Source: a virus (Duplodnaviria; Heunggongvirae; Uroviricota; Caudoviricetes). Taken from it: 13,046 bases of DNA. Under the pieces are notes generated by a model. It searched no databases, was not told the origin of the DNA, and was given only the letters and a program-made list of their open reading frames with translations. A program made the position numbers and the translations under genes. Below, piece after piece: positions 1 through 13,046 of the stretch. Within the stretch, counting starts at the first letter, position 1. Each line of letters opens with the position of its first letter. Location: the IMG/VR virus record IMGVR_UViG_2657244971_000003; one strand, 5' to 3'.

Positions 1-933
1 ATGGACAACGACAAAATTGATCAACACAGCGACGAAATTGAAGTTGAGAGCGAAGAAAAAGAGCGCGGCAAAAAAATAGAAATAGATGAAGACCGACTCC
101 CCTCCCGGGCGATGGCAATTCATGAGCATATCCGCCAGGATGGTGAAAAAGAGCTGGAACGCGACGCAATGGCGCTACTGTGGTCAGCCATTGCGGCGGG
201 TCTGTCGATGGGCGCTTCGTTACTGGCAAAAGGGATATTTCATGTCGAACTGGAAGGTGTGCCGGGCAGCTTCTTGCTGGAGAATCTCGGTTATACCTTT
301 GGTTTTATTATCGTCATTATGGCCCGCCAGCAATTATTTACCGAAAATACCGTGACTGCGGTACTACCCGTCATGCAAAAACCGACAATGAGCAACGTCG
401 GCTTACTTATACGGTTATGGGGCGTCGTGCTGCTGGGTAATATTCTCGGGACAGGTATTGCGGCGTGGGCATTTGAATATATGCCTATCTTCAATGAAGA
501 AACTCGCGATGCATTTGTCAAAATCGGCATGGATGTGATGAAGAACACCCCCAGCGAGATGTTTGCCAACGCGATCATTTCCGGCTGGCTGATCGCCACT
601 ATGGTTTGGATGTTTCCTGCAGCGGGTGCGGCAAAGATTGTGGTGATTATATTGATGACCTGGCTTATTGCCCTGGGTGACACCACCCATATCGTGGTCG
701 GTTCTGTTGAAATCCTCTATCTGGTGTTTAACGGTACGCTGCACTGGAGCGATTTCATCTGGCCCTTCGCACTACCTACTTTAGCGGGGAACATCTGCGG
801 CGGCACCTTTATCTTCGCGTTAATGAGTCATGCACAGATTCGTAACGACATGAGCAATAAGCGTAAAGCAGAAGCACGCCAAAAAGCAGAACGTGCGGAA
901 AACATTAAGAAAAATTATAAAAACCCGGCATAA
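1..933 (+). CDS. yfdC: Formate/nitrite transporter (FNT) family inner-membrane protein, complete 310 aa
   Basis: ORF starts at ATG at position 1 and ends at TAA 931-933. Translation has multiple hydrophobic helices and matches my recollection of E. coli YfdC, which sits immediately upstream of argW. Synteny with argW and intS supports this. Confidence 0.85.
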   Translation: MDNDKIDQHSDEIEVESEEKERGKKIEIDEDRLPSRAMAIHEHIRQDGEKELERDAMALLWSAIAAGLSMGASLLAKGIFHVELEGVPGSFLLENLGYTFGFIIVIMARQQLFTENTVTAVLPVMQKPTMSNVGLLIRLWGVVLLGNILGTGIAAWAFEYMPIFNEETRDAFVKIGMDVMKNTPSEMFANAIISGWLIATMVWMFPAAGAAKIVVIILMTWLIALGDTTHIVVGSVEILYLVFNGTLHWSDFIWPFALPTLAGNICGGTFIFALMSHAQIRNDMSNKRKAEARQKAERAENIKKNYKNPA

Positions 934-1008: not shown

Positions 1009-1083
1009 GTCCTCTTAGTTAAATGGATATAACGAGCCCCTCCTAAGGGCTAATTGCAGGTTCGATTCCTGCAGGGGACACCA
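1009..1083 (+). tRNA. argW: tRNA-Arg, anticodon CCU
   Basis: 75-nt cloverleaf read directly: acceptor GTCCTCT/AGGGGAC, anticodon stem AGCCC/GGGCT with loop CTCCTAA (anticodon CCT), T-arm GCAGG-TTCGATT-CCTGC, discriminator A and encoded CCA. A TATACT -10-like hexamer lies at 992-997. Confidence 0.9.
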
Positions 1084-1244: not shown

Positions 1245-2393
1245 ATGCTCACCGTTAAGCAGATTGAAGCAGCAAAGCCGAAAGAAAAACCATACCGCCT
1301 ACTCGATGGTAATGGCCTGTACCTTTATGTCCCTGTGTCAGGGAAAAAGGTATGGCAGCTTCGCTACAAGATTGACGGTAAGGAGAAAATCCTGACCGTA
1401 GGAAAATATCCGCTAATGACTTTGCAGGAGGCAAGAGATAAAGCATGGACCGCGAGGAAAGACATCTCGGTTGGCATCGATCCGGTAAAAGCGAAAAAGG
1501 CTTCGTCTAACAACAATTCCTTTAGTGCCATTTACAAGGAATGGTACGAGCACAAGAAGCAAGTCTGGTCAGTAGGCTATGCAACTGAACTTGCCAAAAT
1601 GTTTGATGACGACATTTTACCCATCATCGGCGGTCTTGAGATTCAGGATATTGAGCCGATGCAACTGCTGGAAGTAATCCGCAGATTTGAAGATCGCGGT
1701 GCAATGGAGCGAGCCAACAAAGCCCGCAGAAGATGCGGCGAGGTTTTCCGTTACGCCATTGTCACTGGTAGGGCTAAATATAACCCGGCACCTGACCTTG
1801 CTGACGCCATGAAGGGATACCGCAAGAAAAACTTCCCGTTTCTTCCTGCAGACCAGATCCCGGCATTTAACAAAGCACTGGCAACATTTTCAGGAAGCAT
1901 CGTATCGCTCATTGCGACCAAAGTTTTACGCTACACAGCCCTAAGAACGAAAGAGCTTCGTTCCATGCAATGGAAGAACGTCGATTTTGAAAACAGGATT
2001 ATCACTATCGACGCCAGTGTGATGAAGGGACGCAAGATTCATGTTGTCCCGATGTCGGACCAGGTGGTTGAACTTCTCACTACGCTAAGCTCAATCACCA
2101 AACCAGTATCAGAGTTTGTTTTTGCCGGGCGCAACGATAAGAAGAAGCCAATCTGCGAGAACGCGGTGCTACTTGTGATCAAACAAATCGGCTATGAGGG
2201 TCTGGAAAGCGGTCACGGATTCAGGCATGAATTCAGCACGATTATGAACGAGCACGGCTGGCCTGCTGATGCTATAGAGGTTCAGCTAGCCCACGCGACC
2301 GGTGGATCTGTTCGCGGAATTTACAATCACGCACAGTACATGGAAAAACGCCGCGAGATGATGCAGTGGTGGGCTGATTGGGTTGATTTGTGA
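1245..2393 (+). CDS. intS: P4-family tyrosine integrase (IntS-like), 382 aa
   Basis: ATG at 1245, in frame within the tracked ORF 1209-2393 (which begins at a GTG). N-terminus MLTVKQIEAAKPKEKPYRLLDGNGLYLYV is typical of the P4-integrase arm-binding domain. C-terminal region has the tyrosine-recombinase signature (HGFRHEF ... RGIYNHAQY). Position directly downstream of argW matches the IntS arrangement. Confidence 0.85.
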   Translation: MLTVKQIEAAKPKEKPYRLLDGNGLYLYVPVSGKKVWQLRYKIDGKEKILTVGKYPLMTLQEARDKAWTARKDISVGIDPVKAKKASSNNNSFSAIYKEWYEHKKQVWSVGYATELAKMFDDDILPIIGGLEIQDIEPMQLLEVIRRFEDRGAMERANKARRRCGEVFRYAIVTGRAKYNPAPDLADAMKGYRKKNFPFLPADQIPAFNKALATFSGSIVSLIATKVLRYTALRTKELRSMQWKNVDFENRIITIDASVMKGRKIHVVPMSDQVVELLTTLSSITKPVSEFVFAGRNDKKKPICENAVLLVIKQIGYEGLESGHGFRHEFSTIMNEHGWPADAIEVQLAHATGGSVRGIYNHAQYMEKRREMMQWWADWVDL

Positions 2394-2398
2394 ACCAG

Positions 2399-4357
2399 TT
2401 AATTTCTCAAAATAATATTACCAGTGGAGACAAACGAGAATATGAAGTTCCCGCGCGGCGTTCCGCCACCGGATGTATTTTGCTTCGGAAAAACCTGGAT
2501 GGAACCGAGCGCTGACATCTGAAATGTAAATGCCGGGGTATCATTTGTTATTACACTATCCTCAATAAACGAAATAACAGAAATGTTACCTATAGTCCCA
2601 GCCGACCTTTTGTATAACAGCTCATATATTGCACACTTTGTCTTGCTTGAGTTGTAAACTTGGCATGTGATTTTACCTGCACAGGATGACGCCGCATCGT
2701 TATCACTGTACGTCCCAACACCGACAACAGTTTTTGCAATACCTGACTCAACACTAACGGCTAACTCATTAGATGACTGAGACGATAAATTGTTATATCT
2801 GTCAGTTGTCAGCTTTTGAGCTGTTGAAACATTATCGTCGAGGAGCCTGGAGGCTACTGAATCGGCCTTAATATGCACCCCGCGAGACTGGCAACGCCCA
2901 AAAACTGCTGCACCGCCAGCGATAGAGACGCCTTTATGCGGAATTGAGGACAGGTCAACGCTACCGAAGTATGTCCTGTTTCCGCCATCACCACCAACCC
3001 TCTCGTCTATATTTCCAGGAACGACCCCTGCATATACCGCGCCTGAACCCACATTAATATCTAATATGTTACGGGTTGGTTTCTCTGCTGAAATAGAACC
3101 ATCTGCAATAGTTATGTTAGCGTAAATATCAGATGTACTCTCTATTCTCACTGCACTTGACGGTTGCTGCTGCCCACAGAATGCTATTTGATTAGATCCT
3201 GATATATTTAATGCAGCAGCCTGCCGTATAAATATCGCCTCTCTTCCACCTTCAAAATAATTGTTCGCTCCACTTATGTTTACCCACGCTGCTTTATCTA
3301 CATACAAATGATTTGAATGCGTTTTTGTGTTTCTGTCGGAATGCATTAAGTTATCTGAATAAATAAGACCATCAAGCTGCTCTGCTATAAACCCACCGTA
3401 CCGAGTAAACCAACCACGATTATTAGTGAATTTAAAATCATTATAGGCATACGCATGAGCATTATCGTGTTTCAGCTCAACTAATTTCCCGACATTAATG
3501 GCTGTCATGTTATCGATAGTGATAAGGCCTATTGCGTGAAATGGTGTTGTTGCGTCTGCAATGCCTTTGATTGCACAATCAACTCGAGTTGCTTTGATGT
3601 TAATGAAATCTATAAACCTTCCCTTTTTCAGCTTAAACCCGTAGTCACCACCAGGGGCAGTAGATGTAATCCCTATACCGTCAATGGTTTTAAGGGCCTC
3701 CCCCCTGCCGTCATTAATGATAAATGACAAATCTTGCAGCCAGCCGCCGCCAACAATATCACACAGTCTAGTCACCTCAATTGAAGCGCCCCCAAATTTC
3801 AACACCCCGCTAATGCCTAAGATAACCCCTTCATCTGAACACTTATGAACTGCATCAAGCAGCTTTTGAGGATCATTAATCACAGAAAATGAAAGCCCGA
3901 AATCTCTTGCGTCAATAACGGCTCTGTTTTCCAGGGAGTCTTTTAGAGTTTTCCCTCCGCCAACGCCAATTAATGAGCCATCTCCTTTCTTTAACTCATC
4001 ACGGAATCGTATTTCAAACTGGTCTGGATCATATTTCAATACATTCGGAAAATAGAACTGCTGCGCACCATATGCATCATAAACAGCCATAGAATGGCCT
4101 TGCACAGTTACGAATTTGGCAATCTGCCCGTTATATACCGGATATCCAGCAGCATTGATAACAATTGGCTGAGAAACAGGGACGTGAGATCCGTCTTCAT
4201 TCTCTACATAAACCTGAATCTGGTTTTCAGTATTTACCGGGTCCGTGTCAATTTTACCGATATAAATTTTGCCATTGGCTACGGCTTTAAAAGAACGCGC
4301 CATAGTGAAGATTTGCGAAGGCATCGATATAATCACATTGGCTGTAATGTCTGTCAT
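2399..4357 (-). CDS. Podovirus tailspike protein: P22-gp9-like N-terminal head-binding domain fused to a divergent receptor-binding domain, 652 aa
   Basis: N-terminal ~120 aa ([42 protein letters not shown]...[13 protein letters not shown]...NVLKYDPDQ) closely resembles the P22 tailspike head-binding domain as I recall it. The rest is Gly/Asn/Ser-rich, as expected for a beta-helix. GGAG lies about 10 nt upstream of the ATG at 4357. Receptor specificity cannot be called from sequence. Confidence 0.85.
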
Positions 4358-4414
4358 TTAATTTGCTCCAGATACAAGGAATCACCGAAGCATGGCTACG
4401 GTGAATTTTGGGCA

Positions 4415-4439
4415 TAAAAAAACCCAGCCGAAGCTGGGT
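4415..4439 (-). terminator. Rho-independent terminator downstream of ant (minus strand)
   Basis: On the minus strand: GC-rich hairpin CCCAGC-TTCG-GCTGGG (plus-strand 4423-4438) followed by a run of 7 T (complement of the A-run at 4416-4422). Confidence 0.55.
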
Positions 4440-4457
4440 CGTTGCGTTGGTTATCTG

Positions 4458-5381
4458 TCAGTAGTTATGTACTGAAGGAGGTAATTCTTTATTCTTAAGT
4501 CTCATCCATGCGGAAAGATTCGTTGGTCCGTCTGGCTCATTAATATCAACATCTCGTGTGTGATTGATTAAAACGTCTCTCGCCATTCCGATAACATACG
4601 AGAACTCATGACCGTAGTCGTAGCATCTGCCTGAATAGTTCGATTGAATTTGTTTTAGCGCCGGATACAGTTCGCGGAATAATGCCTGTGAGCGGTTGGC
4701 ATAATCCCATAACCATACAAGGCTGTTTGCTTCTTTTGCAGAAAGCTCGTTTGCTTTCTTCTCTTGTTTGCCGATTAACTCGCCTTCAAGCGGAACGCGA
4801 GCTGCAAGTGACAGAGCTTCGGTAAACTGCTCATCGCTGATTTCTTTGTATGAACACCCAAAATGAGATTTCAGTGACGACCACATGGTAATCATTGCCT
4901 TCGCCTGTTTTTCTTTTGGCAGAGACTGACCGCGACTCATGACGAGTTGTTTAATGGCTTCCTGCTGTTCAGTGGTGATTTTACCCGGCAACGCCTTTTT
5001 AGCTTTGCGTGGGTTAACTACATGGCCTTTAGTCCAGTAGTCGTATAGCACATCGTCACACTCTTCTTGATACTGGATTACATTGTCGCGGATTTCAGGG
5101 CGGACTTTGTTAGGGCTGATGGTTTGCAACCAGCCATTCAGTTTACGTAAAGCAAGGCAAATCATGGTCTGCACACCGCCAACTGAAGGTATTGCGATTT
5201 CCACAATTCCTTTAGCAAATCTTTGTTTTAACTTTGTAAACTGTGAAGCCCAATCCATACCCATTCCCTCAACGATAGGTTTCATTGGGGTGTACGGTTC
5301 GCCGTTGTGATTGACAACATAAAGCTCTGCGCCGTGGAATGGCACGTTGATAGTAGATACTGCTGTTGCTATACTTTTCAT
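4458..5381 (-). CDS. ant: Phage antirepressor (Ant-like), 307 aa
   Basis: N-terminus [17 protein letters not shown]...[27 protein letters not shown] resembles antirepressor N-terminal domains as I recall them. It lies between an arc-like gene and the tailspike, the P22 immI order. AGGAAT lies about 8 nt upstream of the ATG at 5381. Confidence 0.8.
5347..5375 (+). promoter_or_regulatory. Candidate promoter for a sar-like antisense RNA, inside the first codons of ant on the opposite strand
   Basis: TTGATA (5347-5352), 17-bp spacer, TATACT (5370-5375). The predicted start near 5382 is immediately antisense to the ant start codon (5379-5381). Confidence 0.4.
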
Positions 5382-5456
5382 GTCGTTAATTCCTATGCGT
5401 GGTTTTACGATACCGAAGCCCTGACTGTTCCAGCAGTTGGGGCTTCAACTTTTTTG
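5382..5456 (+). ncRNA. Putative sar-like small antisense RNA (~75 nt) complementary to the ant ribosome-binding region
   Basis: Runs from the predicted start (~5382) across the complement of the ant Shine-Dalgarno and ends at a plus-strand terminator: extended imperfect hairpin GAAGCCCTGACTG / CAGTTGGGGCTTC (5415-5446) followed by TTTTTT (5450-5455). P22 has a short Sar antisense RNA at the analogous position. Predicted from motifs only. Confidence 0.4.
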
Positions 5457-5687
5457 TCCAGCTTGTCCGAGTAAAAATCCAGATACATGCTCTACTGACT
5501 GGTCAACCTCAATTTTTCTGCCAGAAGTTAATGTAATAAGCGCACAATCGTCACCTGTGCCCTCTACCAACTCAATGTTTTGGCGTCTTATGGTGTATGT
5601 CGTTTTGTTTTTTTCGAATCTAATCCGCCACCAATCACTTGTCCTTCTGCTTTCAAACTTTGTTTTAGTTAGGGTTATAAAGCTCAT
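5445..5687 (-). CDS. Hypothetical 80-aa protein inserted between arc and ant, translationally coupled to arc
   Basis: Its ATG (5685-5687) overlaps the arc-like stop TGA (5684-5686) as ATGA. No recognisable motif. Product MSFITLTKTKFESRRTSDWWRIRFEKNK... is basic at the N-terminus and acidic in the middle. Confidence 0.5.
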   Translation of the reverse strand: MSFITLTKTKFESRRTSDWWRIRFEKNKTTYTIRRQNIELVEGTGDDCALITLTSGRKIEVDQSVEHVSGFLLGQAGQKS

Positions 5688-5824
5688 ACCGTTATCCCCT
5701 CTCTCTTCAGGCTATCCATCACCCGTTTAATTACTTCTGCGCTAAATGAGCGACACTCTTCCTTTGCTTTCTCTTCAAGGATTTTTTCTAACTTCTCTGG
5801 CATACGCAGTGTTTTTACCTTCAT
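5684..5824 (-). CDS. arc: Arc-like ribbon-helix-helix repressor, 46 aa
   Basis: Hand-translated (below the 60-aa floor of the ORF track): MKVKTLRMPEKLEKILEEKAKEECRSFSAEVIKRVMDSLKREGITV. C-terminal half resembles the P22 Arc C-terminus (...QRVMESFKKEGRIGA). GGAGAA lies about 6 nt upstream of the ATG. It is divergent from a Mnt-like gene. Confidence 0.7.
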   Translation of the reverse strand: MKVKTLRMPEKLEKILEEKAKEECRSFSAEVIKRVMDSLKREGITV

Positions 5825-5929
5825 TGCATTCTCCGTTGTATGTGGTACGCATACATAGTATTTAGGTACGCATTGATAGTCAATAGATACCTACATATCC
5901 TGTGGTAAAAAATTATTCAGGATGTGCCG
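5825..5929. promoter_or_regulatory. Divergent immI-like promoter/operator region between arc and mnt
   Basis: A 105-bp gap between divergent RHH repressor genes. 9-bp direct repeats GGTACGCAT at 5844-5852 and 5865-5873 are spaced 21 bp apart. An imperfect inverted repeat TGTATG...CATACA lies around 5838-5856. TTGATA is at 5873-5878. Confidence 0.5.
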
Positions 5930-6181
5930 ATGTCTGATCGTAAGTACAAAAACCCTCAAGTGAATCTGAGGCTTCCTGTAGAGATAAAGGAACGTCTTAT
6001 TGAACTGGCTGAGGCTAATTCTCGTTCATTAAATGCTGAGATGGTCGCGGCACTTGAAGCGTGGACAGAAAAAAATAAACACATTCAAGCACTAGACCTT
6101 GCAACTATAGCATCACGATTGATAGATCTTGAACACGATGTTGAGACACTGAAAACCATGTATGGTAAGGATGCAAAATGA
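5930..6181 (+). CDS. mnt: Mnt-like ribbon-helix-helix repressor, 83 aa from the ATG
   Basis: The tracked ORF begins at GTG 5924, but the ATG at 5930 has AGGA 8 nt upstream. N-terminus (NLRLPVEIKERLIELAEANSRSLNAEMVAALEAW) follows the Arc/Mnt pattern. Orientation is divergent from arc-ant, as in P22 immI. Confidence 0.7.
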   Translation: MSDRKYKNPQVNLRLPVEIKERLIELAEANSRSLNAEMVAALEAWTEKNKHIQALDLATIASRLIDLEHDVETLKTMYGKDAK

Positions 6182-6387
6182 ATAAAAAACAGTTTATTAA
6201 GTCAAAAACGTCAAGCAAGGAAGAGCTAGAGAAAGAGCTAAACTCCCTGAAATATGCTCTGTGTCTGGTTTACTCAAGACTGCCAATGGAAGATAAAAAC
6301 GCCATTTACAATGAAATGATTAGCAGCCTTGATTTTAACGATAGAGACCTAGCATCCCACCTCAACAGCTTCCGCGTCCCTGAGTAA
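6178..6387 (+). CDS. Hypothetical 69-aa protein translationally coupled to mnt
   Basis: Its ATG (6178-6180) overlaps the mnt stop TGA (6179-6181) as ATGA. Lys/Glu-rich N-terminus. No recognisable motif. Confidence 0.5.
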   Translation: MNKKQFIKSKTSSKEELEKELNSLKYALCLVYSRLPMEDKNAIYNEMISSLDFNDRDLASHLNSFRVPE

Positions 6388-6547
6388 TTCTGTTGCGGAT
6401 TTGCTTCTTGCGGTGGTTTAGGCTGGAGAGCTTGGCTTCTGCTTCTGATATTTGCGCATCTAGATCTTTAAGCTCAAGATCTGAAAGTCGCTGGTCAAGC
6501 AGGGTTTGGTTCAACTCAATGTTGTTCAGGCGTTCTTCTATGGTCAT
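6362..6547 (-). CDS. Hypothetical small coiled-coil protein, 61 aa from ATG 6547 (tracked ORF extends to 6640)
   Basis: MTIEERLNNIELNQTLLDQRLSDLELKDLDAQISEAEAKL has a heptad-like Leu/Ile pattern. AGGA lies about 9 nt upstream of the ATG at 6545-6547. Its 3' end overlaps the preceding plus-strand ORF by 26 nt. It could be a chance ORF. Confidence 0.35.
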   Translation of the reverse strand: MTIEERLNNIELNQTLLDQRLSDLELKDLDAQISEAEAKLSSLNHRKKQIRNRITQGRGSC

Positions 6548-6578
6548 AACTTTCATCCTATAACTATTTGGAATTAAA

Positions 6579-6761
6579 ATGAAAAATATATTAATTGGTT
6601 TCGTTTTTGGTGCAGCCTGCGCCGCCAGCATTAGCGTCATAGCCGCTCAGATTGTTGGTGGTAACTCATATCTAATGGGCTATGACGTCATGATAAATGG
6701 AGAGGTTGTTTGCTCAGACCCTTATGTATGGACGTCGACAAAAGAAATAGAATGTGACTAA
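6579..6761 (+). CDS. Hypothetical small secreted protein or lipoprotein, 60 aa
   Basis: N-terminus [24 protein letters not shown] looks like a signal peptide with a possible lipobox-like Cys. Weak RBS. Same strand as mnt. Confidence 0.4.
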
Positions 6762-6814
6762 TACCAGCCTGATGGCTGGTTAATTTCGTCATGCTCAAAA
6801 CTAAGGAGGTTGGT

Positions 6815-7042
6815 GTGAAGCGATGGTTCCTCATAATTACTGTTTTCGCGATCATTTACACTATTTTCCCTGCATTAAAAGCACCAATGCAAATAATTTC
6901 ACTAGCAATAATTTCGATTGGTGCTTTCATTGCAGTAGCCGTACTTGTGTTTAAGGTTTTAAAGTTTTTAGTTTGGCTATCAAAAGATGATGGATGCAAA
7001 GTTCATCAAGAAAAAGAAGGCAAAATAACCAAAGTTGACTAA
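6815..7042 (+). CDS. Hypothetical small inner-membrane protein with two predicted transmembrane helices, 75 aa from GTG 6815
   Basis: AAGGAGG (6803-6809) lies 5 nt upstream of the in-frame GTG at 6815; the tracked ORF begins at ATG 6791 without an RBS. Two hydrophobic segments (WFLIITVFAIIYTIF and IISLAIISIGAFIAVAVLVF). Same strand as mnt, the position where P22-like phages carry exclusion genes. Confidence 0.5.
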   Translation: MKRWFLIITVFAIIYTIFPALKAPMQIISLAIISIGAFIAVAVLVFKVLKFLVWLSKDDGCKVHQEKEGKITKVD

Positions 7043-8718
7043 CTGTCACTAGCGAGCCATGTAATAATCCCCGTGCGGGCAATGGTTTTTGCTTCATCTG
7101 TTGATAAGGTTTTCTCCCATCTCTTAAATGCCCCAGATTGCATCAGTTTCCTTTCTATTGCGCGTCTCACTTCTGCTCTGTCTACTGGTGCGTTTTGCAG
7201 GCGAAATAGCATTGATTTAAACTCAGGAGAAGATAGCAGAGCATCAGCAGCCTTTATCCTGCTTGTTTTCCCTGACATCAATGCAGACGTTATCACCCCT
7301 GTTGCACCTACACCAGGGAGACCAGATAAGCTTGTAATACCTTCCGCCGCAGCAGCTTTTGAGGCTATTCCATAAATTTTTGCGAGACTACCCTTTTCTT
7401 TCAGAAAGTTATTAACTTGCTGATCCACAAGACTACTAGCATACTGCTTACCAGTATTGAGTCTATTCATAGCCTTAGCTGCTTGATAAATCGTATCAAG
7501 GCGCTTTGATGCATCTGTGCCAATAGCATCACGGAGAGCCTTCATATTGGCCCCATTGCGTGACATTCCGTTATACCATTTTACAAATCCATCAACTCCT
7601 AATTGCTGACCAGGTGATTTGGCATAGCTGGTAAATGCTTTATTCATTGAGGTGAGCGCAACTTCCTGCCGCATATCCTTTGGAATCGACTTCATTAATT
7701 GCCTAAAGTCGCCACCGTTTCCTTTTGCCATATTAACAACAGCACTTTCAACTTTTAGAATTGCTGATTGCTGAAGTTTTCTACCCAAGACGGTTACAGC
7801 ATCATCTTCAATGGATTTTCGTTTTTTTACCAACTCCTTACCAAGCGTCCATAATTCCCCTGCGCCATATTTTTCTGCGACAGCCTGTTGGTCATCTGTT
7901 ATGGCTGCATATAACTTTTTAAGAACACCTGTTTCTTCATCCTTGAATGGACCAGAGCCTTTGCCAATAGCTTGTCCAACCTGCTTTCTAGCGAGATCTA
8001 AACGCCCATACGTTGGCAAGGTGTTTGGATCAAGTCGGTTCAATGTCCGCTTCATTATTGGAGATAATTCATCAATTCCACCTATGTCATCAGCAAAATC
8101 CTCTAAAAAATTCAATGTATTAGTTGCCTCAATCCGGTCTCTTACAGGAACCTTTTCGGCAATTTTGTTGTAGATGTTATCTGACTGATTTTGTAATGAT
8201 GAAATGGTTTTATCAAAATTATCTGCAAGCCTGTCAGAAACCAGTTGCTTATCAAGGCTTCCCCCAAATGAAGTTATCATTTCATCAGCTTTTCTTCCTA
8301 ATTCAGTAATAAAACGCTTATGCGCCTCACTAATCTCTGTTCCAGGGAGACTTGCCACTGCATTATCAAGAGCCCTGACAGCAGGATTATTAGAGATCAT
8401 GCCTGGAGTGGCATAATTTTCCAGTTCTAGCTCACGAATAGCATTTATCGCGTTAAAATCAGGATTAACTTCATCGGCGAAATCTTGAATAGCTCGTTGC
8501 CCGCCGATAAATTTATTGTCCATTGCGCCAGTAGCTTTCTTTAACGTTGCTTTAGATGATTTACTACCCATCCCTACGGATGAGCGATAAATATCTCCGG
8601 CACTATTTTTAATTTTTCCTGCAATCTTCCCAAGCGCTGGACCAACAATCTCGGCTATCCGGTAACTCCGGATGGTTGGATAAGCTGTAGTGAGCAGATG
8701 CCTTCCGCAGGGGAACAA
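7039..8718 (-). CDS. P22 gp16-family DNA ejection/injection protein, probably 5'-truncated (possible pseudogene)
   Basis: Long, alpha-helix-rich, Ala/Lys-rich product. It sits upstream of the sieA/mnt-like region, where gene 16 lies in P22. The frame is open to 8718, where the tracked ORF begins at a TTG with no RBS; the first in-frame ATG (8569-8571) has only a weak RBS. Identity is from synteny and composition, not motif recognition. Confidence 0.55.
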   Translation of the reverse strand: MFPCGRHLLTTAYPTIRSYRIAEIVGPALGKIAGKIKNSAGDIYRSSVGMGSKSSKATLKKATGAMDNKFIGGQRAIQDFADEVNPDFNAINAIRELELENYATPGMISNNPAVRALDNAVASLPGTEISEAHKRFITELGRKADEMITSFGGSLDKQLVSDRLADNFDKTISSLQNQSDNIYNKIAEKVPVRDRIEATNTLNFLEDFADDIGGIDELSPIMKRTLNRLDPNTLPTYGRLDLARKQVGQAIGKGSGPFKDEETGVLKKLYAAITDDQQAVAEKYGAGELWTLGKELVKKRKSIEDDAVTVLGRKLQQSAILKVESAVVNMAKGNGGDFRQLMKSIPKDMRQEVALTSMNKAFTSYAKSPGQQLGVDGFVKWYNGMSRNGANMKALRDAIGTDASKRLDTIYQAAKAMNRLNTGKQYASSLVDQQVNNFLKEKGSLAKIYGIASKAAAAEGITSLSGLPGVGATGVITSALMSGKTSRIKAADALLSSPEFKSMLFRLQNAPVDRAEVRRAIERKLMQSGAFKRWEKTLSTDEAKTIARTGIITWLASDS

Positions 8719-8980
8719 GTGTTGGCGTACCGTCCAGACGCGCCGGAAAGTAATGATCCATTAATCAAGATGGCAACGTACGTTGGCGGGTCAGCACACG
8801 GACACGGCTTTGATTGCTACTGCAAGCCAACCCACTGGATGCCGCTGCCAGCAGCACCGCAGGAGGTGAACCGTGGCTAACCTGCAACTTGCCGTCAAAG
8901 GTGAATAACAATCCTCGCATTCGCGGGGATTTCTTTTATCTGAACTCGCTACGGCGGGTTTTGTTTTATGGAGATGATAA

Positions 8981-9531: not shown

Positions 9532-9732
9532 ATGCAACACGAACTACAGCCTGATTCACTGGTTGATTTGAAATTCATCATGGCCGATACTGGCTTCGGT
9601 AAAACCTTCATCTACGACCGGATTAAGTCCGGCGACCTGCCAAAAGCCAAAGTTATCCACGGGCGAGCAAGATGGTTATATCGTGACCATTGTGAATTCA
9701 AAAATAAGCTCTTAAGCCGCGCTAATGGGTAA
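9532..9732 (+). CDS. torI: Excisionase / recombination directionality factor (TorI-like), 66 aa
   Basis: MQHELQPDSLVDLKFIMADTGFGKTFIYDRIKSGDLPKAKVIHGRARWLYRDHCEFKNKLLSRANG matches my recollection of E. coli TorI, the KplE1 excisionase. GGAGA lies about 8 nt upstream. The symbol is recalled, not searched. Confidence 0.7.
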   Translation: MQHELQPDSLVDLKFIMADTGFGKTFIYDRIKSGDLPKAKVIHGRARWLYRDHCEFKNKLLSRANG

Positions 9733-9805: not shown

Positions 9806-9818
9806 CTGCAGGGGACAC
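9806..9818 (+). repeat. 13-nt direct repeat of the argW 3' end (CTGCAGGGGACAC), candidate attR core of element A and relic attL of element B
   Basis: Exact 13/13 identity with 1069-1081. An 8-bp inverted partner TCCCCTGC sits at 9782-9789. Together with the 16-nt repeat it reconstitutes the argW 3' half (1054-1081), interrupted by about 293 bp that carry torI. Confidence 0.55.
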
Positions 9819-9932
9819 TTTAAAGACCTTTCTCTACATTTCACTTCATTACATAACCACTTAACAAAACAGTAAGTTATCACCGAATCGGCCTGATTTT
9901 CATTTCAGTTAATTTCATGACATTACAACCTC

Positions 9933-9981
9933 GTGATGGTATAAGTGATGGTATTCCCCAGTTCGATATGCAGATACCATC
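9933..9981. promoter_or_regulatory. Repeat cluster upstream of the second integrase (candidate arm-type or operator sites)
   Basis: Tandem direct 10-mers GTGATGGTAT at 9933-9942 and 9945-9954, plus an inverted copy ATACCATC at 9974-9981. Confidence 0.4.
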
Positions 9982-10004
9982 AATTTACCAAAATGAGTAC
10001 AGAT

Positions 10005-11279
10005 ATGGCCATTAATGTGCTTTCCCCCAAACAGATAGAAAACGCCAAGCCGAAGACCAATGATTACAAACTTACCGATGGAGGGAGTTTGTATCTACTG
10101 GTACGAAAGACTGGTGGAAAATACTGGCGTATGAATTATCGTTTTGATGGAAAACAAGTGACATTGGCATTAGGGGTCTACCCAGATGTCTCACTTGCAA
10201 CAGCGCGGAAACGGCGTGATGAAGCCAGGCAACTACTAGCCGATGGTCGTGATCCTCGCGAAGCAAAGAAACCCAAAAAGGAAGACCCAATTTCCCCCAC
10301 GTTCGAGAGTGTTGCCAGAGAGTGGCATAGTGGAACGATGGGGCATCCTGAGTGGAAAGAGATCACCCGTAAAAAAATTCTCCGAGAAATGGAAAACCAC
10401 CTCTTTCCTGCCATCGGTTCAAAGCCTATCGATACGCTCAAAACCCGTGACTTGATGCCGATGCTGGTTGAGATGACTGAGAAAGGAATTGGTGCCACAA
10501 CGAGCCGTGTAAAAACCACTATGACGAGCATCTTCCGTTATGCCGTGCAACGTGGAATTGTCGATTACAACCCTGCCCACGATCTAAAAGGTGCAATTAC
10601 GGCCCCCAAAGTACGACATCGCCCCGCACTACCTCTCGAACGTTTACCTGAACTGTTAGCGAAAACGAGAAGTTACACGGGAAGACCATTGACTCGCCTA
10701 GCAGTTCTCTTTTCCCTGCACACTTTTGTGCGATCCAGCGAACTACGACATGCCAGATGGGAGGAGATCGACATTGAAAATGGGCTATGGACGATACCAG
10801 GACAACGTGAAGAGATCGCAGGGGTTAAATTCTCAGATCGGGGTGCAAAGATGGGGGCTGCTCATTATGTCCCGCTATCTAGTCAGGCTATCGGGGTACT
10901 GGAGGATATAAGGAAAATCAGTGGTGAATATCTGCTGGTTTTTCCCGGTGACAGCAACCCATATAAACCGATGAGCGAAAACACAGTTAATAAAGCACTG
11001 CGAACGATGGGTTACGACACTCAAACTGATGTTTGCTTGCATGGGTTCAGGGCGATGGCCTGCTCTGCACTGACCGAATCAGGACTCTGGTCACGCGATG
11101 CAGTTGAACGGCAGATGAGTCACCAAGAAAGAAACGAAGTGCGGGCAGCATATGTGCATCTTGCGCAGCACATGCAGGAACGCCGCAGAATGATGCAATG
11201 GTGGTCTAATTATCTGGAACTAAATAAGGACGAATTCCATGCTCCTTATGACTTATCAGGTATTAACATTATCAATTAA
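10005..11279 (+). CDS. P4-family tyrosine integrase, about 424 aa
   Basis: N-terminus MAINVLSPKQIENAKPKTNDYKLTDGGSLYLLVRKTGGKYWRMNYRFDGKQ is the P4-integrase arm-binding domain pattern. Catalytic region has HGFRAMACS and RAAYVH. The start could instead be ATG 9993; the tracked ORF begins at GTG 9945 inside the repeat cluster. Confidence 0.8.
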   Translation: MAINVLSPKQIENAKPKTNDYKLTDGGSLYLLVRKTGGKYWRMNYRFDGKQVTLALGVYPDVSLATARKRRDEARQLLADGRDPREAKKPKKEDPISPTFESVAREWHSGTMGHPEWKEITRKKILREMENHLFPAIGSKPIDTLKTRDLMPMLVEMTEKGIGATTSRVKTTMTSIFRYAVQRGIVDYNPAHDLKGAITAPKVRHRPALPLERLPELLAKTRSYTGRPLTRLAVLFSLHTFVRSSELRHARWEEIDIENGLWTIPGQREEIAGVKFSDRGAKMGAAHYVPLSSQAIGVLEDIRKISGEYLLVFPGDSNPYKPMSENTVNKALRTMGYDTQTDVCLHGFRAMACSALTESGLWSRDAVERQMSHQERNEVRAAYVHLAQHMQERRRMMQWWSNYLELNKDEFHAPYDLSGINIIN

Positions 11280-11292
11280 ATACTCTTATAAT
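11263..11292 (+). promoter_or_regulatory. Candidate sigma70 promoter for the 293-aa orphan gene
   Basis: TTAACA (11263-11268), 18-bp spacer, perfect TATAAT (11287-11292). AGAGG RBS at 11300-11304. Confidence 0.45.
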
Positions 11293-11309
11293 TTAAAACA
11301 GAGGTCATA

Positions 11310-12191
11310 ATGCAGCATTCAACAGAGAATGAAACTATATTCTTAGGAAATCTATGGATTGACAAAAAAATACCACCATTAGAATATTGTTCATTTGAAC
11401 GCGCTTCAAGACTATTAGAATGCGAGATTGATGATTTATTACATCTATACGAAATAGGCGCTTTTAATATCGCATTCAAGGCGAATGGACTTGCAGTTAG
11501 ATTTAATGTTAATTTCCTCAATAAAAATCAGAAAATGGAAATTGACTTAATTCATCCCGTATTAACTAATCAATCACTAGAGATGGAATTTTCAACAATA
11601 TGGTATGACCTTAAAGATGATTCCTTTGAACATTTTGAAAATGGGCTTCAAATTATAGGATTTGCCTGTGGTATTTGGTACGCCGATGATATGATAAGTG
11701 ACATAAAAAATGGATTAGCTATAGATCCAGATTATGAATTCAGGCTTAAACCGGTAAAAATACGAGATAATGTTTTGATGGCAACGGCCTCATATGAAGG
11801 AAATAAGGTCATTGAGATTCCATTTGAAGATCTTCTTATCATGCGAAGAGATTTAGAGTTAATATGGAAATCAGTAAAAACTGGAATTCCTATGCCAAGT
11901 TTACTTACGAAAAGAATTTCATCTGAACCTAAAATCCCCAAGCGATTAAATAACACTGCTGAGCATCATGCAAAAAATAGGGAGGGGTTATTAAATGCAG
12001 CCATATATATATTAGCAAAATACCCAAGCGAATGTCGTGGTGAAAGAAAAGAGATAAGTCCTGAAAAGTGGACTAACGCCATAATTAAACATTTAGGAGA
12101 GCTACCTCCAATATTTATCACTAATGAACAAGAAATCTTAAGAAAATTACGATTAGCGGTTAATCATGCGGGATTAAAACAAAAGGGGTAG
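11310..12191 (+). CDS. Hypothetical 293-aa protein, strongly AT-rich, no recognisable domain; candidate accessory cargo
   Basis: Long ORF with a good RBS and its own promoter. It is visibly more AT-rich than the flanking integrase and alpA-like genes (judged by eye, not computed). I found no Walker A, clear nuclease or HTH signature by eye. Confidence 0.65.
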   Translation: MQHSTENETIFLGNLWIDKKIPPLEYCSFERASRLLECEIDDLLHLYEIGAFNIAFKANGLAVRFNVNFLNKNQKMEIDLIHPVLTNQSLEMEFSTIWYDLKDDSFEHFENGLQIIGFACGIWYADDMISDIKNGLAIDPDYEFRLKPVKIRDNVLMATASYEGNKVIEIPFEDLLIMRRDLELIWKSVKTGIPMPSLLTKRISSEPKIPKRLNNTAEHHAKNREGLLNAAIYILAKYPSECRGERKEISPEKWTNAIIKHLGELPPIFITNEQEILRKLRLAVNHAGLKQKG

Positions 12192-12293
12192 ACTGAAACA
12201 ATCTACAGGTAGAGTTGATTACACTACCTTCACAGCATTTTGATATCCCCATAGTATCTGCCGTGTTCATTACATAATACGGCAGGTAATTTC

Positions 12294-12509
12294 ATGACAT
12301 TAAAAACTTATCCTATCACTGGACATGCCCGCCCACGAGCTACTGCTGACTTTTTGCAAATAAGTACGGTTACTCTCTGGCGCTGGGAAAAGAACAATCC
12401 TGAATTTCCCAAATCTATACGCATTTCAAAACGGGTATCTGTTTACGATGCACAAGAAATTAGGCAGTGGGTTAAAGCTCAATCAGCAGGATTGGAGGAA
12501 GTAGTGTAA
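12294..12509 (+). CDS. AlpA-family phage regulatory protein / excisionase-like HTH protein, 71 aa
   Basis: ISTVTLWRWEKNNPEFPKSIRISKRVSVYDAQEIRQWV fits the AlpA/Xis-like winged-helix pattern. A hairpin CTGCCGT...ACGGCAG (12258-12285) lies just upstream. Confidence 0.65.
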   Translation: MTLKTYPITGHARPRATADFLQISTVTLWRWEKNNPEFPKSIRISKRVSVYDAQEIRQWVKAQSAGLEEVV

Positions 12510-12558
12510 TGACAATATTAACAAAGCTGGGGAGAAAAAAGCCTCCCCAACGTATTAA

Positions 12559-12753
12559 TCAATTCTTTGGTTCTAAACCTCGGCTTTGTAACTCTTTGCG
12601 TAGAATGCGCTTGATCCAAGCCGCTAGCGATTCATCGCCATCCTGCTGTTGTGCTTGTTCCATCAGTTCACGCAGTTCAGGGTCAAGTCGGAACTGGAAT
12701 GGCGGATTCCCACGTCTTTCATTTTTGTGTGTTGACACGTCAATTACACCCAT
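12559..12753 (-). CDS. Hypothetical small DNA-binding protein, possibly ribbon-helix-helix, 64 aa
   Basis: FQFRLDPELRELMEQA...SLAAWIKRILRKEL has a strand-helix-helix-like pattern. No clear RBS. It is divergent from the Icd-like ORF across an inverted-repeat region. Confidence 0.4.
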   Translation of the reverse strand: MGVIDVSTHKNERRGNPPFQFRLDPELRELMEQAQQQDGDESLAAWIKRILRKELQSRGLEPKN

Positions 12754-12766
12754 TGTAATGTATTTA

Positions 12767-12787
12767 TGTGTAATGACACATTACACA
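12767..12787. promoter_or_regulatory. Inverted repeat TGTGTAATG-ACA-CATTACACA, candidate operator
   Basis: 9-bp arms are perfect reverse complements with a 3-bp spacer. Related ATTACA/TGTAAT motifs occur at about 12741-12760, 12215-12222 and 12268-12275. Confidence 0.4.
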
Positions 12788-12869
12788 CAGAAAAACAAAA
12801 TAGCAACGCCCCGGAGTGTTTGCAGCAGCACCGAGGCGTCTGACCAGCACGTTATATGAGGTAACGAAG

Positions 12870-13046
12870 ATGGCTAAACAGAAGTGTACCTGGTTATTTG
12901 CGGCGATCAACCGCAGTCAACGCAATGCCCGTCCTGTGATGTTAAGGATCACCGCTGATAACGAACGATCAGCGCGGCGCAGACTTGCCCCGGACTATGT
13001 ACTGAGCTTTGCCGGGCGCATTCCCTGCGGAGGTGAACATGCGTAA
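12870..13046 (+). CDS. Small Icd-like protein (tentative), 58 aa
   Basis: ATG 12870 with GAGGT 7 nt upstream; the tracked ORF begins further upstream at 12816. MAKQKCTWLFAAINRSQRNARPVMLRITADNERSARRRLAPDYVLSFAGRIPC resembles my recollection of Icd-like small proteins in P4-family islands. The functional label is weak. Confidence 0.45.
   Translation: MAKQKCTWLFAAINRSQRNARPVMLRITADNERSARRRLAPDYVLSFAGRIPCGGEHA

Follow-up and report, generated by a model that had tools for sequence, protein, structure and literature searches.

The 13,046-nucleotide stretch of phage DNA analysed here (IMG/VR record IMGVR_UViG_2657244971_000003; hereafter the window) carries, at positions 2399-4357, an intact tailspike gene within an otherwise degraded prophage at the tRNA gene argW. 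We conclude that this is very probably an ordinary P22-like tailspike left in a young deletion remnant of the KplE1 kind, where its position and the recency of the deletion have kept it intact. The window is 100% identical to the Escherichia coli draft contig LLYN01000076.1 (GCA_001484405.1; our locus L002), and the protein is deposited as WP_060634447.1 / KUH16968.1 under the name "phage head-binding domain-containing protein". The gene and its parts are as follows.

2399-4357, minus strand: tailspike open reading frame (ORF), 652 codons from ATG to TAA, from the ORF translation
4016-4357, minus strand: head-binding (particle-attachment) domain, residues 1-114, up to the hinge YDPDQF (Pfam PF09008)
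2399-4015, minus strand: receptor-binding part, residues 115-652 plus the stop codon, a predicted right-handed parallel beta-helix followed by a C-terminal beta-sandwich
4366-4369, minus strand: Shine-Dalgarno sequence GGAG, 8 nt 5' of the tailspike ATG, read from the sequence

Residues 1-113 of the tailspike cover the full Pfam Head_binding model PF09008 (positions 1-113 of 113, E = 5.8e-65). In a phmmer search of the PDB, matches were confined to residues 1-122, with Sf6 (7sg7, E = 9e-65) and P22 (8tvr, E = 1e-50) among them. Identity over residues 1-114, counted on the alignments, is about 92% to Sf6 gp14 and about 72% to P22 gp9; the domain is thus of the P22 type at family level, as a sequence-only reading of this DNA had proposed, with Sf6 rather than P22 as its nearest relative. 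For all of the solved P22-like tailspikes, sequence similarity extends no further than the hinge YDPDQF, at about residue 114-121. The approximately 538 C-terminal residues match no Pfam, PHROG or NCBIfam family and no sequence in the PDB, and endorhamnosidase-type similarity over residues ~125-667 of P22 gp9 is absent, phmmer aligning residues 1-121 only.

The same reading had found the remaining ~530 residues not recognisably P22-like, had proposed that they probably form a beta-helix of different glycan specificity, and had suggested fold prediction. A first model of the full-length protein, built on a five-sequence alignment, reached a predicted local distance difference test (pLDDT) score of 53 and was unusable; it was replaced by a monomer model of the C-terminal part alone, based on a 19-sequence alignment drawn from an exhaustive HMMER search. 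With the C-terminal profile, that search returned 58 clusters among 1.84 billion representatives, some of which carry Pfam Beta_helix, Phage_depo_C or a CBA120-type Tail_spike_N anchor. The second model is confident (pLDDT 88.4) and consists of a long series of short strands and, after them, a C-terminal sandwich. In the PDB, Foldseek retrieved the tailspikes of Acinetobacter phages P1, AM24 and Fri1 and those of Det7, Sf6, CBA120 (TSP2) and HK620; the matches in BFVD were tailspike-like viral proteins only, at 9-13% identity. The C-terminal sandwich is moreover a sequence relative of the sandwich of tailspike 6E1R (profile E = 8e-24). The model and these matches support the predicted right-handed beta-helix, with a specificity other than that of P22, and the protein has the plan of a P22-like tailspike, an N-terminal head-binding domain followed by a beta-helix and a C-terminal domain. 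The Vibrio cholerae polysaccharide lyase RbmB was also a strong fold match; its profile alignment is short and weak, and the catalytic pair proposed for RbmB, K227/E253 (PMC12993940), could not be placed on the tailspike.

The element around the tailspike is bounded by the following features.

1009-1083, plus strand: argW, tRNA-Arg(CCT) (ARAGORN; a tRNA-Arg is annotated at the matching place in relatives)
1071-1083, plus strand: attL core of the prophage, the argW 3' end CTGCAGGGGACAC, read from the sequence
1245-2393, plus strand: intS, prophage tyrosine integrase of 382 amino acids (Pfam Arm-DNA-bind_3, Phage_int_M and Phage_integrase; called in L002; IntS in relatives)
7039-8657, minus strand: 5'-truncated gene for a gp16-like DNA-transfer (ejection) protein (phrog_6704 positions 170-707 of 707)
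8658-8880, plus strand: 3' fragment of a DUF551 gene (BLAST to NZ_LR883012; weak PF04448 match on the called 60-residue product)
9532-9732, plus strand: intact torI, excisionase-type, 66 amino acids, at the far (xis) prophage end (ORF translation; torI annotated in the homologous stretch of relatives; BLAST mapping)
9807-9819, plus strand: attR core, a 13-nt direct repeat of the argW 3' end CTGCAGGGGACAC, read from the sequence; the adjoining island has its left boundary here

A complete prophage in NZ_LR883012 extends from argW to torI over about 41 kb, in the order intS, acetyltransferase, tailspike, ant, arc/mnt, three ejection proteins, tail, head, terminase, lysis, replication, immunity and recombination genes, DUF551, Eag and torI. 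By BLAST, the homology of the window to complete argW prophages (loci L001 and L013) ends at position 8657, inside the gp16-like gene. The fragment retains profile positions 170-707 of 707 and lacks the first ~169 codons, which sets the left edge of a deletion at 8657/8658; in L013, the match is 99.84% identical over 6792-8657 and runs on into a 707-residue gp16 gene. On the other side, window positions 8655-8702 map within the DUF551 coding sequence of the NZ_LR883012 prophage, marking the right edge. Relative to that prophage about 31 kb is missing, and the two mapped junctions confirm the loss of the virion, lysis and replication genes. Of the P22-like gene set beside the tailspike, only ant/arc/mnt and the gp16 fragment remain in the window. 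The remnant is flanked by the 13-nt argW repeats, with IntS adjoining attL and TorI adjoining attR. Judged from the intact genes and att cores, it is possibly still excisable by IntS and TorI.

An intact mosaic tailspike in a degraded prophage without capsid and tail machinery, as the sequence-only reading described it, is therefore what the mapping recovers: a 652-codon ORF, homology that stops at 8657, and island or core genes in the flanks with no virion genes nearby. That reading had allowed for the missing structural genes lying just outside the window. In the source contig, no structural genes were found near the remnant, which is followed on one side by a small integrase island and then dsdC/dsdX, and on the other by core genes including mlaA and fadL. 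The source being a draft assembly (contig LLYN01000076.1), the degraded state could in principle reflect a collapsed or mis-joined contig of a complete prophage. However, a 6.7-kb contig of the independent Logan assembly ERR9882167 spans the 8657/8658 junction at 100% identity, which shows that the deletion is not an assembly artefact, and the source contig runs into core genes on both sides; the probability of a mis-assembly is close to negligible.

The native gene order accounts for what the deletion spared. In Sf6, HK620, KplE1 and Kapi1, attP lies between int and xis, so that these genes come to lie at opposite ends of the prophage (10.1101/2021.04.09.439263). Complete argW prophages follow the order argW, intS, an optional O-antigen modification gene, tailspike, ant, arc/mnt, ejection proteins, tail and head, and the tailspike is the first or second gene past intS in these relatives. 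Because the tailspike adjoins intS natively, a deletion that spares the integrase end easily spares the tailspike as well. The 90%-identity cluster of the tailspike contains eight distinct sequences, all of 652-653 amino acids. Five of these alleles (P0001, P0062, P0064, P0065 and P0066) could be located, and all five lie at argW beside intS together with a full-length gp16. Genes for gp20, gp7, the needle and gp10 are present in four of the five contigs, and three or four of the contigs reach gp4 or coat. The strain records with this tailspike are GCA_001484405.1, GCA_030324955.1, SRR13871175, SRR31184549, ERR1789880, SRR13279629 and ERR9882167. In the five sister alleles, as in the reference prophage, the tailspike lies distally in the late operon, beyond the ant/immI moron.

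In the window, intS converges on the tailspike and 5 bp (2394-2398) separate the two stop codons, as they do in the complete prophages of the lineage; this gap leaves no place for an O-antigen modification gene between intS and the tailspike in the lineage. In relatives, the gene found at this spot encodes an acetyltransferase, a glucosyltransferase-domain protein, a family 2 glycosyltransferase or an O-antigen polymerase. Survival of the int-proximal genes recurs in an independent argW remnant in E. coli O27:H7 B4103-1 (NZ_CP024245.1, locus L009, 7245-16592). It keeps intS, a different tailspike of 611 amino acids, ant, arc/mnt, a shorter 3' gp16-like piece and torI, and its deletion begins at a different point within the gp16-like gene and ends in a replicative helicase gene.

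The deletion also appears to be recent, as judged from sequence divergence. Within the receptor-binding part, every substitution of the window allele is shared with at least one other of the eight protein alleles, and the gp16 fragment differs from the intact gene in SRR13279629 by 3 mismatches in 1,866 nt (99.84% identity). The other genes of the remnant are all intact. Together, these observations argue for a recent deletion. With near-zero divergence since that event, far fewer than one inactivating mutation would be expected, and an intact tailspike is then the neutral expectation. Frequent inactivating mutations, which the sequence-only reading named as a sign against retention, are not seen: all eight known protein alleles are full length.

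Substitutions between the alleles were also considered as a possible sign of decay in the remnant copy, given that four of the five receptor-binding differences from P0001 are nonsynonymous. This was rejected, as the same excess and the same hot codons occur in alleles from complete prophages, and N366 is common to two other alleles. Across the receptor-binding part of six near-identical DNA alleles (the window, L004 and L010-L013), we counted a minimum of 12 nonsynonymous events against 1 synonymous event. Eight of the 12 fall within a 27-codon patch, residues 356-382 (window 3212-3292, minus strand; Poisson P about 3e-7). The patch includes residue 356 and positions 357 (A/S/T/V), 366 (N/T/S) and 382 (A/S/G), each a single-base change. 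On these counts, the patch resembles a putative glycan-binding site that has undergone adaptive change repeatedly in active phages.

Whether the tailspike could serve its host depends on its expression, which involves the following features upstream of it on the minus strand and beyond.

4414-4440, minus strand: intrinsic terminator GACCCAGC-TTCG-GCTGGGTT plus T-run, between ant and the tailspike, with the stem-loop at 4440-4421 (terminator scan, sequence read)
4458-5381, minus strand: ant (Pfam P22_AR_N and P22_AR_C; matching position in relatives)
5684-6181, no strand assigned: immI-type control region (Pfam Arc; PF03869:Arc on both L002 products; promoter scan; annotations in relatives)
5684-5824, minus strand: Arc-like gene (PF03869:Arc on the L002 product)
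5924-6181, plus strand: Mnt/Arc-like gene (Pfam Arc)
5855-5901: divergent promoter-like sites between the arc-like and mnt-like genes (promoter scan)

In P22, expression of the tailspike is restricted by a terminator that follows ant, except where the polymerase was modified at the late promoter, and we take the terminator in the window to stand in place of this one. The tailspike of P22-like phages belongs to a Q-antiterminated late operon, from the rest of which it is set apart by the ant moron (PMC2629481). The deletion took the late promoter region, the Q-type antiterminator and the lysis genes (holin, endolysin) from the remnant; both repressor genes of the ant promoter, Mnt and Arc, are kept. 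The promoter scan found no promoter-like site between the terminator and the tailspike ATG. Inspection of the translation revealed no signal peptide in the N-terminus, which is a docking domain. On this evidence, the gene would be silent or nearly so, and the protein would be unable to reach the cell surface. The ribosome-binding site (GGAG, 4369-4366) and the upstream terminator (stem-loop 4440-4421), both correctly noted in the sequence-only reading, are inherited from the phage late operon and are not signs of special retention.

It is against this background that a host function has to be judged. The sequence-only reading raised the possibility that the gene is kept for host use, and host selection might indeed maintain a tailspike that processes the cell's own surface polysaccharide, by O-antigen or capsule trimming or by matrix release. 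The ORF is intact and has a ribosome-binding site, its fold is of a polysaccharide-cleaving kind, and argW remnants can carry useful genes, as the gtrABS genes of CPS-53, which glucosylate the K-12 O-antigen, illustrate (PMC11990801). However, the terminator stands directly upstream with no promoter-like site after it, and the N-terminus holds a virion-docking domain in place of a signal peptide. With the late promoter, antiterminator, holin and endolysin gone as well, a role at the host surface is unlikely. Recency already accounts for the intact ORF, and the same gene serves as a working phage part in five other strains. Selection for host use is therefore very unlikely, and the idea is both unsupported and unneeded, given five alleles in complete-looking prophages and a recent deletion.

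Expressed tailspike might alternatively be supplied in trans, joining the virions of a resident or superinfecting P22-like phage to give mixed particles with an extra specificity. Free P22 tailspike trimers attach to tailless heads in the classic in vitro tailing reaction, and the head-binding domain of the window protein is intact and ~92% identical to that of Sf6. With tailspike expression itself doubtful, we consider such complementation extremely improbable.

The receptor-binding domain itself is rare. Megablast of its DNA against 5,426 complete E. coli genomes gave no match; within the gene, matches were limited to the head-binding segment, which hit 1,113 of the 5,426 genomes at 80-95% DNA identity. 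No match to the receptor-binding part was obtained by tblastn in 50,697 phage genomes or by pattern scans of IMG/VR and of GTDB species representatives. A search of 5.8 billion protein clusters gave four homologues, namely the 99% cluster, two relatives of 51% identity on head-binding anchors and one of 57%. In these searches the domain is rare, and it is absent from deposited phage genomes and from solved structures.

The 57% relative is a tailspike of 746 amino acids, encoded at 8001-10241 in L005-L008, which are E. coli prophages; its gene is directly followed by an Acyl_transf_3 gene and a holin/endolysin lysis cassette. We take its N-terminal anchor to be of the epsilon15 type. The occurrence of the same domain on differing anchors is usual tailspike module shuffling. 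A block of mostly synonymous differences from the sister alleles was further observed in codons 1-105 of the window allele (within 4016-4357; 19 of the 24 differences from P0001). One other protein allele, P0067, has the same block, and almost no synonymous differences occur downstream. The distribution of these differences indicates that the head-binding domain has a recombination history separate from that of the receptor-binding part.

The sequence-only reading had also raised the possibility that the gene is kept as a recombination reservoir, from which incoming P22-like phages would gain the domain by homologous recombination through the head-binding segment and intS and thereby change their host range. 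Homology arms are present on both sides, the head-binding segment being found in 1,113 of the 5,426 genomes and intS being widely conserved. The N-terminal domain has its separate history among the alleles, and the 57% identical domain on a presumed epsilon15-type anchor indicates that the module does move between phage types. This exchange, however, would be a possible consequence of the remnant and not a reason for its retention, as there is no sign of host selection for keeping it. A recipient would moreover target the O-antigen type of the ancestral phage, with uncertain benefit, and no recombinant derived from the remnant was identified. That the remnant acts as a reservoir is quite unlikely, and its retention for that purpose is unsupported, although recombination is mechanistically possible as a side effect. 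That the remnant is a live exchange cassette, possibly excisable, which could donate a rare and rapidly adapting domain to superinfecting phages, is likewise unlikely, if a little less so.

In the reading we prefer, an ordinary tailspike in a young remnant, the element would derive from a P22-like temperate E. coli phage (Sf6/HK620/Kapi1-type) that integrated at argW. The tailspike would have been the receptor-binding and receptor-destroying protein of its virion, with the N-terminal domain docking the trimer onto the tail hub and the beta-helix binding and cleaving a surface polysaccharide, most likely O-antigen. A single deletion of ~31 kb, from about codon 169 of the gp16-like gene into the DUF551 gene, then removed the head, tail, lysis, replication and immunity genes and left an 8.7-kb remnant of the KplE1 kind between attL and attR. 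The tailspike would have survived through its native place next to intS and through the recency of the deletion, and would now probably be transcriptionally silent and have no host role.

Several points weigh against this account. The near-identity to intact copies could also reflect recombination that refreshed the remnant copy. Any purifying selection in the remnant lineage would have to be read from only eight alleles, and the comparison prophages referred to as complete are contigs of 18-96 kb in which the structural module is present. Some tailspike expression may arise by read-through from the ant promoter or from a cryptic promoter. Finally, on the fold model the chemistry of the tailspike may be that of a hydrolase, a lyase or an esterase.

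The remaining features of the window lie outside the main argument.

1-933, plus strand: yfdC
About 6178-7042, both strands: several small ORFs matching phage families
10005-11279, plus strand: integrase of a second, separate island outside the P22-like prophage (Pfam integrase domains; 424 amino acids in L002)

In L002, the integrase of the second island is followed by a Phage_AlpA product, and AlpA- and Icd-like neighbours are annotated in relatives. Window positions 9806-13046, the second island, match elements that lie directly at tRNA-Arg in other E. coli genomes. The P22-like phage probably entered argW later than this island and displaced it outward, so that the two form a tandem array at a single tRNA gene. 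Just past the second integrase, within a stretch of 31-33% GC in this small AlpA-encoding island, lies an ORF of 293 amino acids (11310-12191, plus strand). It has no match in Pfam, PHROGs, NCBIfam or PADLOC and could be cargo of a satellite-like island. An ORF of 80 amino acids between ant and arc (5445-5687, minus strand), called as a gene in the source assembly, likewise has no match in Pfam (precomputed hits), PHROGs, NCBIfam or PADLOC. PADLOC returned nothing significant for the small ORFs nearby or for the low-GC ORF of that island.

The tailspike provides a new type of receptor-binding domain, seen so far in a handful of E. coli isolates and of modest practical value; once its target has been identified, it could serve in O-antigen typing or as a depolymerase. 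The locus also offers a clean, dated case of KplE1-like remnant formation at argW, by one internal deletion that spares both recombination ends. More generally, an intact gene speaks for domestication only if the degraded prophage around it can be shown to be old. Were the exchange-cassette idea true, host-range change in E. coli phages would arise to a measurable extent from young prophage remnants.

Among known systems, RbmB of V. cholerae (9OZD) is a monomeric secreted bacterial enzyme with 16% identity to the tailspike. The best Foldseek match overall is the tailspike of Acinetobacter phage vB_ApiP_P1 (6E1R, E = 7e-11), whose sandwich is related in sequence, including a P-S/A-F-T-F/W motif, and whose beta-helix is alike at fold level only. 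It differs in its overall identity of 13-14%, its N-terminal anchor, its host and its (capsular) substrate. The tailspikes of Sf6 (gp14), P22 (gp9) and HK620 share with the window protein the PF09008 domain, the hinge YDPDQF and the plan from docking domain through helix to C-terminal domain, as well as a similar length (652 amino acids here versus 623-710) and the same position downstream of the ant moron. In contrast, their receptor-binding parts show no sequence similarity to it, with likeness at fold level only and ~10% identity. At the level of the element, Kapi1 and other P22-like argW prophages use the same attachment site and carry int and xis at opposite ends, and complete relatives with this very tailspike are known; the window holds the two prophage ends only, with a domain type absent from deposited phage genomes. 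KplE1/CPS-53 of K-12 has the same argW site, att core and IntS and TorI ends and, with its virion genes lost, is similar in size at about 9-10 kb. It keeps gtrABS and decayed tail-fibre genes of another phage type, whereas the remnant in the window retains an intact P22-type tailspike with ant/arc/mnt and looks much younger.

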